Virus record (IMG/VR): IMGVR_UViG_2703719389_000003
From: a virus
Lineage: Duplodnaviria; Heunggongvirae; Uroviricota; Caudoviricetes
Reading direction: 5' to 3' (one strand)
Length of the DNA: 7,039 nt
Part shown: positions 1 to 4,379 of the stretch, in pieces
How the letters are laid out: every line of letters begins with the position of its first letter
How positions within the stretch are numbered: the stretch's first letter is position 1
The notes under the pieces: model-generated
What the model saw: only the letters and a program-made list of their open reading frames with translations
The model's database searches: none
Told to the model about the DNA's origin: nothing
Made by a program: the position numbers and the translations under genes

Positions 1-2618
1 ATTGCCGCACTCTGGTCTTCCAGTTTTTTATTGACGGTCTGCGTGATTTCATTGCTGACATTCGTAATGGACGTCCTGATTTCAGCCAGGTCCGGCGCAA
101 GCTGACCGTTATCAATCTGCGTCCACAACTCCTGGGCCAGATGTGTTTTCCCGATTTCTCCTTTGAAAAAATCCAGGTAACCTTCCGCATCATCGCTCGC
201 CCGACCGACAGCCTCCACGAATGCCGATTTGCCAACGGTGTTCACACTGCGAACGTAAAAATAATAATCATGGCCCGGTTTGATATTGATACTGGCGGCT
301 ATCCAGTACAGCGCCGTACCAAGATAGCGGGCTGTGGTTTCAACCTGCCTGATATCGGTAATCCGCTTTTCCGAGAACCAGAACTCAAACTGTACCGTCG
401 GGTCATAAACAGCAAGATGCGGCGTGGCGGTTATCTGAAAATAGCCCGGCGTCAGCTCAATCCTCGACGGTGCTGCCGGTGCGGCAATCCGGAACGATAC
501 CGACGCCGGATCGCCCTGCTGCCCCCGGGCATTTACCGCCCGGACTGTCAGCCTGTAGTTCCCCAGCGCCAGTTGCGTGAAGCGGTATGTGGTTTCCGTC
601 GTCCGGGCCGTGCTGACCAGTCGCTCACTGCCGTCGTCCGCTGTTACGGTCAGACGGAGCAGGAAGCTCACGCCCTTCACCACCTTCGGTGTGTCCCATC
701 GCGCCAGCACCTGATATTCCCCGCTGTCTGCAGTGACTTCGGCGGTCAGGTGCTGCACTGCTGGCGGCGTGACACCATTCACCGTGCCGCTCTGGTCACC
801 GTCAAAGTGCGCCCCGTTATCCACGATGGCTTCTTTCTCCGGTACATGCTGCACGGCGGTGATGGCATACGTGCCGTCATCGTTCTCACGGATACTCACG
901 CAGCGGAACAGGCGCTGGCGCAGCGTCGGCAGCTTCAGCCCCCACACGCTGTATTCTGCAACGCCGTCAGGAACACGGCTCACTTTCACCTTCACGCCGT
1001 CGGTGACGGACTGGACCTCCACGCTGACCGGATTACCCTGACCGTCAACCAGGCTTATCAGCGTGGTACCGGAGGATGGCAGCGTGATTTCACGGTCGAG
1101 CGTCAGCGTCCGGGTCTGGCTGTTCACCGCCAGCACGCGCCCGCCGGTGCTGATACCCGCATAGTCATCATCGCAGATTTCAATGACATCCCCCGGTACA
1201 TGGCGAAGCCCTTCCGCACCCACGCTGAAGTCCACGGTCTGCGTTTCCAGCAGTTCCGTTTTAATCAGCCACAGCCCGGCGCGGTGCGCCTGCCCCCGGC
1301 TGGTACAGCCAAAGGCATCCATCTTCGTGACGTTACGACCGTAACGGGCAATGGCCTGCGTATCTTCAACAAGCTCTGTCGCCGTCTCCCAGCCGTTATC
1401 CGGGTCAATCCAGTTCACCTCAACGGCATTATGACGGTCCTTCAGGGCACTGAAGCTGTAGCGGAACGGCGCGCCATCATCCGGCATCACCACATTACTG
1501 CGGTTATAGGTCCACACCTTATCCGACGGTCGGTCCTGCACGAACGTCAGCGTCTGCCCGTTCCATACCGGCATACAGCGCATCGCCGAGCAGAAATCAC
1601 TGAGAACATCCCACGCCTTGCGCTGTGTGGTCAGGTAGGCATTACAGGTGATGCGCGGCTCCGTGCCACCAAAGCCATCCGGCACCGACTGGTCGCAATT
1701 CTGGCCGATGACATACAGCGCCCATTTGTCCACATCCGCCGCACCGAGACGCTTCCCCATGCCGTAGCGCGGATGGGTCAGCATATCCCACAGACACCAG
1801 GCCATGTTGTTGCTGTATGCTGGCTTAAACGTTCCGTCCCAGATACCGCTGTATTGCCGCGTCTGCGGGTTATAGTTCGACGGCACCTGCAGAATGCGCC
1901 CGCGAAGATGATAATTACGGCTCACCTGCTGGCTGCCGAACTGTTCCGAGTCCACCTGCACGCCGACCAGTGCCGTGTTCGGGTAGCCCTGTTTCACATC
2001 GATGATTTCGGTGTATGACGACCAGAGCGTTTTGTTCTGCAGCTGGTCTGTGGTGCTGTCCGGCGTCATTCTGCGCATCCGGATATTAAACGGGCGCGGC
2101 GGCAGGTTATCCACCACCACCGAGGCCAGATACTGCGAGGTGGTTTTGCCCTTAATGGTGATGTCTTTTTCCGTCACCCAGCCACCGTTACGCTGGATCT
2201 GAACCAGCAGGCGGACTTCCGACGGATTCCTGTCCCCCTTTGAGGTGGTTTCCACCAGTGCCTGCACACCGAAGGTAAAGCGCAGACGGTCGATGTTTGC
2301 CGACGTGATGGTCCGGGTGATCGGCGTGTCATATTTCACTTCCGTACCCAGCACCGTCTCGGAGCCGGAGGATTCAAATCCCTCCGGCGGTGTCTGCTCC
2401 TGCTCACCTGCCCGGAACACCACCGTGACACCGGATATATTGGTATTCCCCTCACTGTCCAGCACCGGCGTACTGTTCAGCAGCACGCTTTTTAATCCGT
2501 CCACCGGACCTTCAACCGGCCCTTCGCTGATGGCATCGATCACACTCAGCAGCTGCGTGGACTTCAGGTTGTCCCTCGCTTCGCGCGGGGTATGCCCCTT
2601 ACTGCTTCCTTTACCCAT
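1..2618 (-). CDS. J: Tail tip host-specificity protein J (central tail fibre), N-terminal ~872 codons; the 3' end (C-terminal receptor-binding part) lies beyond the left edge of the window
   Basis: Hand translation of the minus strand from the ATG at 2616-2618 gives [13 protein letters not shown]..., matching the lambda gpJ N-terminus as I recall it. Two further checkpoints are in the same frame: around 1170-1200 ([10 protein letters not shown]) and at the left edge around 3-185 ([61 protein letters not shown]). GGAG/GAGGA Shine-Dalgarno lies just upstream (2619-2631 on minus). The ORF track shows no minus-strand ORF here, probably because the ORF has no stop inside the window. I did not scan every codon for stops. 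Confidence 0.88.
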
Positions 2619-2629
2619 TCCTCACACTC

Positions 2630-2660
2630 CATAAACAACAAAGCCGCCCAAAAGGCGGCT
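2630..2660 (-). terminator. Candidate Rho-independent terminator downstream of the moron lipoprotein gene, abutting the J ribosome-binding site
   Basis: Perfect 7 bp GC-rich inverted repeat: agccgcc (2642-2648), loop caaaa (2649-2653), ggcggct (2654-2660). Read on the minus strand it is AGCCGCC-UUUUG-GGCGGCU followed by the U-rich tract UUGUUGUUUAU (plus 2641-2631). It sits 25 nt after the lipoprotein stop codon. No free-energy calculation was done. Confidence 0.5.
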
Positions 2661-2684
2661 CATGAGTTACGACAGGATTAACTA

Positions 2685-3023
2685 TTATTTACATGCATTA
2701 ACACTATCAGCAAAAATTTTTGGCGTTAATGCTGGTACACGTTCATAAAGAGTAAAACTACTGCCATTTCCTGCTTTTTTGATATCAAGCACAACATCAT
2801 ATCCCCCCATAGCCTGTGGAACTAAAAGGCTTACCCCATTCTCAATAGGAAGGGATGTTATAGGTGTTCCATTACCAGCCCATTGTCTGGATATGCAGCC
2901 TGACAATTCATCAATATTTTTTAATGAATTACCTTCCATTACAGGTTTTCCGGATTTTACGTAATCCAAAGATTTACATCCTGTTAAGGCAATAATCGTG
3001 CAGAATAAAATCGTTTTGTTCAT
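2685..3023 (-). CDS. Small predicted outer-membrane lipoprotein of unknown function (112 aa, phage moron inserted between I and J)
   Basis: Corresponds to the 2685..3035 ORF in the track, which begins at a TTG; I place the start at the ATG at 3021-3023 (MNKTILFCTIIALTGCKS...). The N-terminus has a signal peptide (positive n-region, hydrophobic core) and a lipobox L-T-G-C with Cys at position 16. The +2 residue is Lys rather than Asp, suggesting outer-membrane sorting. The gene lies in a strongly AT-rich segment: a hand count of 2701-2760 gives ~33% GC versus ~52% for 2581-2640. It has its own downstream hairpin terminator. No clear Shine-Dalgarno is present, which lowers confidence. I do not recognise the protein family. 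Confidence 0.6.
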   Translation of the reverse strand: MNKTILFCTIIALTGCKSLDYVKSGKPVMEGNSLKNIDELSGCISRQWAGNGTPITSLPIENGVSLLVPQAMGGYDVVLDIKKAGNGSSFTLYERVPALTPKIFADSVNACK

Positions 3024-3096
3024 ATAGCTAACCAATAGAATAATTATCAGTGTTCGATATAAATATTAAATTAGTTAGAACATGAGTAAAATAATA
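3024..3096 (-). promoter_or_regulatory. AT-rich intergenic region upstream of the lipoprotein gene; possible moron promoter (candidate -10 GATAAT at plus 3043-3048 on the minus strand)
   Basis: A 73 bp very AT-rich spacer lies between the I stop (3097-3099) and the lipoprotein ATG. It contains a GATAAT hexamer, with a weak TTTAAT/ATTTAA -35-like element 16-17 bp upstream. Only weak consensus matches; not experimentally or computationally scored. Confidence 0.2.
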
Positions 3097-3738
3097 TTAC
3101 CGCCCAATTACCACAACCTGACCACCATCCCCTTCATCTGCCGTGCTAATCTCCTGAGATGCCACACGTGACCCCACGCGCATTTCACCGTACAGAACAG
3201 GCAGGACATTGCCCTGGGCAACCATGTTATCCAGTGAGGAGAAATAGGTGTTCTGTTTGCCGTTATCCGTTGTCTGTGTACGGGGAGTTCTGGCTTTCGG
3301 TGCCAGCATCTGCGCCACACCACCAAGCGTCATCGCCGCACCCATTGAAAAGAGAATGTCACTGAAAGCGATACTGATCCCCGGCATCCAGATTGCCGTA
3401 GCAATCAACGCCGCACCCAGCACCGCCTGAAACACACCGCCACTTTTTGCTCCCGCAAGACGCGGCACGATGTGGATCACGGCACCATTTGCCAGCGGCT
3501 CATTAAGACGGGATGATAATTCGGTTTCTCCTGCATCCCGCCCGGCAATCCGTACCTGATACCAGCCATCGCTCAGTTTCTGACGAAACGCCGGGAGCTG
3601 TGTGGCCAGTGCCCGGATGGCTTCAGCCCCCGTTTTCACACGAAGGTCGATGCGGCGGCCAAATCGTTGCAAATCCCCGTAAAGGCAGATGCGTGCCATT
3701 CCCGGTGACGCCAGAGGGAGTGTGTGCGTCGCTGCCAT
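3097..3738 (-). CDS. I: Tail tip assembly protein I (213 aa)
   Basis: The translation begins MAATHTLPLASPGMARICLYGDLQRFGRRIDLRVKTGAEAIRALATQLPAFRQKL and ends ...EISTADEGDGGQVVVIGR, matching lambda gpI termini as I recall them. It is about 10 aa shorter than lambda gpI (223 aa) in the central Gly/Ala-rich hydrophobic segment. Its 5' end overlaps the 3' end of K by 103 nt, as in lambda. Confidence 0.9.
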   Translation of the reverse strand: MAATHTLPLASPGMARICLYGDLQRFGRRIDLRVKTGAEAIRALATQLPAFRQKLSDGWYQVRIAGRDAGETELSSRLNEPLANGAVIHIVPRLAGAKSGGVFQAVLGAALIATAIWMPGISIAFSDILFSMGAAMTLGGVAQMLAPKARTPRTQTTDNGKQNTYFSSLDNMVAQGNVLPVLYGEMRVGSRVASQEISTADEGDGGQVVVIGR

Positions 3739-4379
3739 TTGTCGGTATACCTCTCTCGTTTACTCAGTTGTTCAGGAATATGGTGCAGCAGCTCACCGTC
3801 GCCGCAGTAAATGGCGGCGTGATTCGGCACCGATGAACCAAAACAGCACAGCAGCACATCGCCCGGCTGCGCCTCTGTCAGTGCGACACGGTAAAAACCA
3901 GTAGCCTCCATATTGTCAAGATAGAGATTCTGACCGTGACGCCACCAGTCATCCCCGCGATGAAAATCCGGCATCTCAATCCCCGCCAGATGGTAAGCAT
4001 CCCGGAACAGTGTGTAACAGTCCGTCACCCCGTACTCAAAGCGCCGCCCGGTGAGATGCGGCACACAGCGGAACTTGTGAATCGCCCCCCGGCAGACCAG
4101 CCACCACGGCAAATCGCTCTGCACCTGCAGCCGCCGGTCAGCCTCACTCAGCCAGGGCAGACCACCGGGGTGGCTGTGGACCAGCGCCACAATCTCACCC
4201 TGCATCTCTGCCTGCAGCCAGTCCTCCGGAGCCATCCGGAAATACGCCTCCGGCTCACCGGAGATATTCACGCAGGGGAAATATCTTTCCCCCTCCGGTG
4301 TTCTCACCACGAAGCCGCACGACTCCGCTGGCGCACATCGCCGGGCGTGCGCCAGAATCGCTGATTCTGTCTCTGTCAT
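3636..4379 (-). CDS. K: Tail tip assembly protein K, with JAMM/MPN-type metalloprotease motif and NlpC/P60-like region (247 aa from the MTETES start; lambda-annotated start equivalent would be the internal Met at 4235)
   Basis: The ORF track gives 3636..4421; I choose the ATG at 4377-4379 (MTETESAILAHARRC...), which lies 4 nt after the L stop, rather than the upstream ATG that overlaps L. A JAMM motif H-S-H-x7-S-x2-D (HSHPGGLPWLSEAD) is encoded at about 4137-4178. A conserved Cys (GVTDCYTLF) and His residues (NHAAIYCGDGELLHH) are consistent with NlpC/P60. The C-terminal 199 aa match lambda gpK (MA[AP]EDWLQAEMQGEIVALVHSHPGG...) as I recall it. Confidence 0.82.
   Translation of the reverse strand: MTETESAILAHARRCAPAESCGFVVRTPEGERYFPCVNISGEPEAYFRMAPEDWLQAEMQGEIVALVHSHPGGLPWLSEADRRLQVQSDLPWWLVCRGAIHKFRCVPHLTGRRFEYGVTDCYTLFRDAYHLAGIEMPDFHRGDDWWRHGQNLYLDNMEATGFYRVALTEAQPGDVLLCCFGSSVPNHAAIYCGDGELLHHIPEQLSKRERYTDKWQRRTHSLWRHREWHASAFTGICNDLAAASTFV

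Follow-up and report, generated by a model that had tools for sequence, protein, structure and literature searches.

The DNA analysed here is a stretch of 7,039 nucleotides (the window) from IMG/VR virus record IMGVR_UViG_2703719389_000003, and it is the tail-tip end of a lambda-like Escherichia coli prophage, read on the minus strand. Between the tail genes I and J of this prophage lies an open reading frame (ORF) for a small lipoprotein of the phage family PHROG 914. We hold with high confidence that it is a functional, horizontally acquired gene for a lipoprotein of outer-membrane type, from a family that is uncharacterised. For its role, the leading reading is that the lipoprotein may exclude incoming phages at the level of the envelope, independently of the receptor; this reading draws on precedent and genomic context and not on homology, and it is possible while falling short of probable.

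The ORF starts with an ATG at 3023 and stops at 2685-2687 on the minus strand, and its product of 112 residues begins with MNKTILFCTIIALTGC followed by KSLD. A TTG start at 3035, which adds MVSY before the methionine, was rejected, as the N-termini of homologues give it no support. The product matched the phrog_914 hidden Markov model with an E value of 7.3e-33, residues 1-112 falling on positions 1-118 of the 118 in the profile. This full-length match and the translation bear out an initial annotation of the DNA, which had placed an ORF of about 112 amino acids with the lipobox LTGC at 2685-3023. The lipobox reads L-T-G-C, with lysine at +2 and two further cysteines, C43 and C111, read from the sequence; the initial annotation had also counted these two cysteines, whereas its description of the mature domain as Gly/Asn-rich is only mildly true. 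Family members were scored by a rule of sequence only, in which [LVI][ASTVI][GAS]C without aspartate at +2 denotes a Lol-sorted outer-membrane lipoprotein. A lipobox is present in 127 of the 131 members and aspartate stands at +2 in none, and by these rules the outer-membrane type read earlier from the lysine at +2 stands. Exactly two further cysteines occur in 114 of the 127 lipobox-bearing members. In an alignment of 51 sequences the lipid-attachment cysteine, C16, and the two other cysteines are invariant, with P27, W48 and G63 nearly so. Lipobox and cysteines together are as expected for an outer-membrane lipoprotein that has a single disulfide.

The gene is under purifying selection. The 61 intact E. 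coli copies have 11 variants on 75 synonymous sites and 6 on 261 non-synonymous sites, which gives a ratio of non-synonymous to synonymous polymorphism (pN/pS) of ~0.16, and the between-genus ratio of the corresponding substitution rates (dN/dS) is 0.04-0.28 where dS is unsaturated. Such selection rules out the reading of the gene as a non-functional hitch-hiker. Frameshifts are found in 3 of the 64 E. coli copies (L079, L080 and L081), and the gene is thus occasionally lost by decay.

The boundaries of the insertion were defined by alignment of the I-J region with the empty-site phages PhiR49_1_star and mEp460. Some 430 bp (window ~2665-3096) replace ~17 bp immediately 3' of the I stop codon, and in these two phages and more than 100 others I and J are separated only by a spacer of ~60 bp. 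The GC content of the insert is 27-41%, compared to 54-59% in the flanks, and that of the coding sequence (CDS) is 36%. The ORF lies 73 bp downstream of the I stop codon (3097-3099) and 63 bp upstream of the J start (2621). By the extra DNA between normally adjacent genes and by the differing base composition the lipoprotein gene is, in the sense of Juhala and Hendrix, a moron, an inserted accessory gene, as the initial annotation had supposed; the empty sites in near-identical phages and the low GC content confirm it.

A scan for the sigma-70 consensus on the minus (coding) strand upstream of the ORF gave no site with at least 9 of 12 positions, and thus lends no support to a strong promoter of the gene's own. 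Inspection of the 73-bp spacer by eye revealed a GATAAT -10 element with a poor -35, and a weak Shine-Dalgarno sequence. Since the spacer has no good sigma-70 match, the gene is expected to be transcribed with the late tail operon, and its orientation within that operon implies production in lytic growth at the least, with some low-level production in lysogens also possible. The terminator-like hairpin at 2641-2661 is also found in the empty-site phages, with compensatory changes in its stem. It belongs to the lambdoid I-J spacer itself, as a conserved element inside the late operon, and its import with the insert was rejected.

Homologues with 48-62% identity are carried by Klebsiella, Enterobacter, Kluyvera and Jejubacter prophages, and others with ~25-38% identity by Yersinia, Hafnia, Shimwellia, Burkholderia and the Pseudomonas phage phiAH14a. 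A profile search of 1.84 billion representative proteins gave 121 clusters (50% identity), nearly all of 105-125 amino acids; the homologues of phiAH14a and of Klebsiella phage ST846 also match phrog_914. Other searches returned little: a megablast of the insert against the phage collection had no match, a tblastn of the protein against 50,697 phage records found only the two distant homologues of Fraca and LMessi, and a scan of one genome per species found a single close relative, in Kluyvera. The last result indicates that the close subfamily is sporadic and strain-specific. The E. coli lipoprotein is 50-62% identical to those of Klebsiella, Enterobacter and Jejubacter, whereas the flanking K, I, L and M are only 30-40% identical, and this better conservation indicates that the gene has moved between tail-module lineages. 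The moved copies each stand in a siphophage tail module, in late-gene orientation, at the I-J, K-I or T-H junction.

In every tail module that carries it, the gene runs in the direction of the late operon, with spacers of 6-86 bp and no terminator upstream. This arrangement, and the repeated landing in late operons despite horizontal transfer, would suit a role late in the lytic cycle other than exclusion, namely modulation of the envelope before lysis, or a smaller loss of progeny on debris through a general change in the outer membrane. We consider such a role very unlikely: most closely related phages lack the gene, distant members lie in repressor-side operons, and the product is not spanin-like. 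Its identification as an o-spanin (Rz1-like) was rejected outright, as it has a globular domain of 96 residues and a tail-module site, is not proline-rich and is not nested in Rz; a marginal O_Spanin_T7 match (E 0.089) was obtained in one family member only.

The insert is carried by 337 (~6%) of the 5,426 complete E. coli genomes, at 97.5-100% nucleotide identity. The I-J flanking sequences are present in 4,297 genomes, compared with about 334-337 for the insert. Carriers include UTI89, APEC O1, O104:H4 2011C-3493 and CE10. DNA that is 99.9% identical is located next to the trp operon in UTI89, S88, APEC O1, IHE3034 and ATCC 11775, where J is followed by lom and side-tail-fibre genes. In RefSeq the ORF is labelled a hypothetical protein (WP_001332187.1), in several genomes as a late addition on re-annotation, and a literature search on WP_001332187.1 or phrog_914 found no paper. 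The many carriers among extraintestinal pathogenic E. coli (ExPEC) suggest a host-fitness or virulence factor of the Bor/Iss or TraT type, a prophage lipoprotein by which serum resistance, stress tolerance or colonisation would be raised. We judge this to be unlikely. The protein has no match to Pfam Lambda_Bor or to any other Pfam family, and PHROG 914 also has members in Burkholderia, in a Pseudomonas phage from Antarctica, in metagenomes of environmental origin and in the isolates Fraca and LMessi. Unlike bor, the gene is co-directional within the late operon and lacks a clear promoter of its own.

Neither the single protein nor the family profile had a match in Pfam, NCBIfam, PADLOC or the PDB sequences. 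Pfam returned no family at E<=1 for the protein and none for any of the 51 family members, and weak matches of VirB7, DUF6491, LPAM_1 and YceK type span only the signal peptide and the first residues. PHROG 914 is thus already catalogued, without a described function or a Pfam entry. The AlphaFold2 (AF2) model (predicted local distance difference test 84, predicted template modelling score 0.75) describes a globular mature domain of 96 residues, with a beta-alpha-beta4-alpha arrangement in two layers. The predicted fold is a helix-grip-like alpha/beta fold, closest to those of Francisella Flpp3 and the N-terminal domain of BamC, and fold searches gave only generic helix-grip or TBP-like matches. 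In a library of viral structures the sole good match was an "uncharacterised" phiAH14a protein, which is a true family member with a mis-annotated start. A likeness in fold or sequence to Llp, Cor, Bor or MliC, for which the initial annotation had proposed to look, did not appear in the Pfam, PDB and profile searches or among the top fold matches listed.

A small, disulfide-stabilised periplasmic lipoprotein on mobile elements, one of them an integrative island of small unknown genes, could also be an inhibitor or immunity protein. It would then act against a lysozyme or other peptidoglycan hydrolase, a type VI secretion system effector, a bacteriocin or, in the manner of T4 Spackle, a muralytic enzyme of the tail, and K, with its NlpC/P60 domain, adjoins the gene in many phages. 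To this account we assign little likelihood. No MliC, PliC, Ivy or immunity family was found by sequence or among the top fold matches listed; for MliC and PliC in particular, whose characteristic fold is a beta-barrel, there was no Pfam match, and no chain among those same fold matches. A cognate toxin gene is not found nearby. According to structural work on lambda, the location of gpK is unknown and the virions are without a peptidoglycan hydrolase (PMC12617516).

The adjacency to the receptor-binding gene J had led the initial annotation to a further proposal, that the lipoprotein masks the phage's own receptor as Llp and Cor do. It would do so by binding the periplasmic face of the outer-membrane receptor of J, making the receptor unavailable. 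This proposal is in keeping with a lipoprotein of outer-membrane type that probably has a disulfide and whose gene belongs to the tail-tip region, and the precedent of Llp, Rtp45 and Lpp021/Lpp010 is strong. The gene does adjoin J, but at its 5' end, and the receptor-binding domain is encoded at the 3' end, about 3.3 kb away. We compared the C-terminal 170 residues of J in 39 loci with the lipoprotein gene and a complete J. The N-terminal 800 residues of J are ~98% identical (five E. coli carrier loci), and the C-terminal residues fall into four types (27, 7, 3 and 2 loci) with 15-66% mutual identity. The identical lipoprotein allele was found with all four of these receptor-binding-domain types, and the tape-measure proteins of these loci are 26-100% identical. 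Any target of the lipoprotein is therefore expected to be independent of the receptor-binding domain. Three of the four types are distantly related to the lambda/434 domains (45-66% identity), and a shared porin-class target is conceivable on this account; the remaining type is unrelated (15-20% identity). The converse was also observed: phage 204576 and many Stx phages, in which the C-terminus of J is 97-100% identical to that of this prophage, do not have the lipoprotein gene.

The positions of the homologues argue in the same direction, as they pair with very different J proteins (3,100 residues in Klebsiella) and some have no J nearby. Proven exclusion lipoproteins are encoded directly downstream of J or of the receptor-binding protein, and they track the receptor. 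Fraca carries a genuine cor downstream of J (phrog_1119, 7e-34) and, in addition, a PHROG 914 gene between K and I. The lipoprotein has no match to phrog_1119 (Cor) or to Llp, its mature domain of 96 residues exceeds the 77-residue precursor of Cor, and Llp and Rtp45 are not among the top structural matches listed. Taken together, the linkage, its converse, the position and the departure from the classical pattern disfavour masking of the cognate receptor, which we regard as improbable; they do not oppose exclusion in general. Superinfection exclusion, as it had been suggested for this gene, thus remains plausible in its general form on precedent and context, while its receptor-masking version is disfavoured.

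Two E. coli prophage contigs of IMG/VR (L045 and L050) encode a J of 1,084 residues with a C-terminus (...VIRVRMGRLF) that has no relation to the receptor-binding domain of lambda type and is similar to the ends of J in Fraca and LMessi. These ends indicate that the tip of J was swapped downstream of an unchanged segment of I, the lipoprotein gene and the N-terminal part of J.

Gene I directly adjoins the lipoprotein gene in most of the family contexts, and the lipoprotein genes at the K-I junction belong to at least four unrelated PHROG families. The K-I lipoproteins of phrog_2320, phrog_3152 and phrog_890, all of unknown function, are sometimes in tandem with a PHROG 914 gene, and the phrog_2320 copy of Fraca is annotated without a signal peptide. 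In phiAH14a (L093:5962-6948 and L095:25717-26310) the family member p33 was annotated with a truncated start; the true ORF has 115 residues and the lipobox LSGC. It is located outside the tail module, in the repressor-side early operon, and is followed by p32, a second copy of gpI, 79% identical to the phage's own gpI p84. The satellite phage phiAH14b carries just a gpI gene and then a lipoprotein gene, with no other tail genes (PMC4936722). One IMG/VR contig (L082:3050-7900) has a cargo island of 4.8 kb between K and I. It holds an Arc-like ORF, two proteins of KilA-N/antirepressor type and, directly before the family lipoprotein, a cI-like HTH_3 gene; a second lipoprotein follows. Another IMG/VR contig (L056) has in succession the partial tail-tip modules L-K-I-J, M-L-K-I-lipoprotein and M-L-K-I-J on a single contig of 22.5 kb, which may reflect tandem or recombined prophages, or a misassembly.

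In the leading reading, receptor-independent exclusion at the envelope, the lipoprotein would display its alpha/beta domain of 96 residues, stabilised by the disulfide, in the periplasm. Its action would follow adsorption and be directed at the conserved machinery of the tail tip that breaches the outer membrane, for which the gpI plug with its hydrophobic helices and the tape-measure protein behind it are candidate targets; unlike Llp and Cor, it would not mask the cognate receptor. Cryo-electron microscopy shows gpI as a trimer that plugs the tail tip of lambda; when the tube opens, the two hydrophobic helices of gpI are proposed to enter the outer membrane, ahead of the tape-measure protein (PMC11101478; PMC12617516). 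This suggests that a lipoprotein anchored in the inner leaflet of that membrane is well placed to disturb the insertion of gpI. A specific version of the mechanism, which is doubtful, holds that from this leaflet the lipoprotein could intercept the gpI plug helices or the tape-measure protein, and so abort the ejection of lambdoid DNA whatever the receptor. It would account for four observations: the lipoprotein families (at least four, unrelated) gather at the K-I-J junction from Pseudomonas to E. coli, pairs of gpI and lipoprotein travel together, also into a satellite phage, and the lipoprotein gene is uncoupled from the receptor-binding domain and coexists with Cor.

Receptor-independent exclusion is also favoured by the distant members that stand downstream of cI-like repressors on the same strand (Burkholderia, L082 and phiAH14a). 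The site downstream of a cI-like repressor is the classical one for exclusion genes expressed in lysogens. To our knowledge, exclusion is the role of most non-spanin phage lipoproteins whose function in Gram-negative hosts has been tested, among them Llp, Rtp45, Cor and Lpp021/Lpp010. Several observations weigh against this interpretation. PHROG 914 has no homology tie to any known function and is absent from PADLOC, and with no convincing sigma-70 promoter upstream of the gene, expression in lysogens is only conjectural. In Enterobacter, Burkholderia and the other distant contexts the gene does not adjoin I, so that its pairing with I may be no more than the outcome of an insertion hotspot and of inherited synteny, and junctions of the tail operon accept varied cargo, as the mixed 4.8 kb at the K-I junction of L082 exemplifies.

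The remaining features of the window and the positions of the homologues are collected in Table 1. On the minus strand the genes are, in order, the tape-measure gene H (cut at the edge of the window), M, L, K, I, the lipoprotein ORF and the first 873 codons of J. The receptor-binding C-terminus of J lies outside the window, and full-length J was read from UTI89. There are no Rfam families and no tRNAs in the window. Two plus-strand ORFs that overlap the lipoprotein gene (2779-2964 and 2864-2995) were rejected as unsupported antisense shadows. The plus-strand ORF of 625 residues at window positions 141-2018 is not a gene; it is the antisense shadow of J, and its translation is rich in Arg, His and Cys.

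Table 1. Features of the window, and genomic positions of PHROG 914 members and other lipoprotein genes of the K-I junction.
Feature	Position or location	Strand	Basis
Lipoprotein precursor CDS, 112 aa, stop codon included, PHROG 914	2685..3023	(-)	ORF, translation, phrog_914 match, selection, AF2 model
Signal peptide with lipobox (MNKTILFCTIIALTG, then C)	2976..3023	(-)	Sequence; Cys16 is the predicted lipidation site; Lys at +2 and Ser at +3 predict outer-membrane sorting
AT-rich spacer of 73 bp, I stop codon to lipoprotein start	3024..3096	(-)	GC 0.265 at positions 2900-3099
Inserted segment (moron), ~430 bp replacing ~17 bp of the I-J spacer	2665..3096	(-)	Alignment with PhiR49_1_star and mEp460
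Terminator-like hairpin, 9-bp stem then TTTGTTGTTTAT, just upstream of J	2641..2661	(-)	Scan; RNA fold -19.1 kcal/mol, z -2.5
Gene I, tail tip protein (ubiquitin-like N-domain, hydrophobic helices, plug)	3097..3738	(-)	Pfam Lambda_tail_I, E 4e-24; RefSeq annotation at identical UTI89 locus
Gene J, 5' part, N-terminal 873 aa of tail tip/central fibre protein	1..2621	(-)	Pfam FNIII-A_GpJ, Phage-tail_3, Ig_J
Gene K, tail assembly (JAB/MPN and NlpC/P60), upstream neighbour of I	3636..4379	(-)	RefSeq "C40 family peptidase" at identical UTI89 locus; tblastn mapping
Family member between K and I	Klebsiella prophages, phage ST846-OXA48phi9.1, Fraca, LMessi, several IMG/VR contigs		
Family member between chaperone gene T and tape-measure gene	HK97-like Enterobacter prophages (L008-L010, L084-L089)		
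Family member directly downstream of cI-like helix-turn-helix (HTH) gene	Burkholderia gladioli prophage, contig L082	Same strand as HTH gene	
Family member in repressor-side operon	phiAH14a		
Family member between divergent early operons	Phage-like element		
Family member in integrative island of small unknown genes	One metagenomic contig		
K-I lipoprotein, phrog_914			
K-I lipoprotein, phrog_2320	LMessi L002:7647-7994; Fraca L001:7725-7994		
K-I lipoprotein, phrog_3152	L082:7406-7855		
K-I lipoprotein, phrog_890	phiAH14a p83, L095:25239-25661		

The carriers of the gene include model uropathogenic, avian and neonatal-meningitis strains as well as the 2011 O104:H4 outbreak strain. Receptor-independent exclusion, if true, would reveal a new means by which prophages influence susceptibility to phages, would be relevant to phage therapy against ExPEC and Klebsiella, and would give a genetic handle on the poorly understood crossing of the outer membrane by siphophage tail tips (gpI and the tape-measure protein). 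A Bor-like fitness factor, if that were true, would be a modest addition to the genes of lysogenic conversion. The apparent hotspot of unrelated lipoprotein genes at the K-I-J junction is a lead that can itself be tested.

Among known systems, Llp of T5, Cor of phi80, N15, T1 and HK022, and Rtp45 of Rtp resemble the lipoprotein in that they are phage-encoded and have a lipobox and an internal disulfide. As with the lipoprotein, their predicted site is the periplasmic side of the outer membrane, and their genes lie in the region for the tail or host recognition. Llp and Cor act on FhuA, and Rtp45 plugs LptD (PMC12685063). The llp gene adjoins the receptor-binding gene of T5, downstream of it, and the exclusion genes of small siphophages are directly downstream of gpJ (PMC9586334), whereas the PHROG 914 gene of the window is upstream of J, far from the receptor-binding domain, and does not co-vary with the receptor type. 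Only phrog_914 was found for the lipoprotein at E<=1, which sets it apart from Cor (phrog_1119). The Llp chain 8a60_B aligns with the signal peptide only (E 1.3), and in structure neither Llp nor Rtp45 is among the top fold matches listed, the mature domain of the lipoprotein (96 residues) being larger. Lpp021 and Lpp010 of the mEpimmI coliphages likewise have their genes in the structural cluster, in temperate siphophages of E. coli whose K, I and J are lambda-like. They are experimentally verified exclusion proteins whose types track the receptor, OmpA versus LamB, and in mEp021 the Lpp, gp81, is numbered after J (gp79), that is, downstream of J (PMC11893012). They differ from the lipoprotein in this position and are not homologous to it, the tblastn against the 50,697 phage records having found only Fraca and LMessi.

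The mechanism type proposed here, exclusion that is receptor-free and tail-dependent, has its counterpart in HK97 gp15, the first moron described, which blocks the entry of DNA without touching the receptor and depends on the incoming tail (PMC3594210). Like the lipoprotein gene it is an accessory gene of the tail operon, and the Enterobacter family members occupy the exact gp15 slot between the chaperone and tape-measure genes. Its product, a small YebO-like protein of the inner membrane, is no lipoprotein and has no homology to the product studied here. Another prophage lipoprotein, Ltp of Streptococcus thermophilus phage TP-J34, mediates superinfection exclusion (PMC3952083). It differs in its Gram-positive host, its unrelated helical fold and the location of its gene in the lysogeny module. 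The target of Ltp is the incoming tape-measure protein and not a receptor. Bor of lambda and Iss are, like the lipoprotein, small outer-membrane lipoproteins of E. coli lambdoid prophages. The bor gene is found past the lysis genes, runs in the opposite direction and is active in lysogens. The PHROG 914 protein has no Pfam Lambda_Bor match at E<=1, and genomic position and fold differ as well. With Francisella Flpp3 (DUF3568) and the N-terminal domain of BamC the likeness is one of predicted fold, at 6-10% identity; neither the protein nor the family has a Pfam or profile match to Flpp3 or DUF3568, and Flpp3, whose own function is unknown, offers a resemblance of fold and not family membership. 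The lipoprotein is thus of a known general kind, the envelope lipoprotein encoded by a moron, and is unlike every characterised example in sequence, fold, position and coupling to the receptor.

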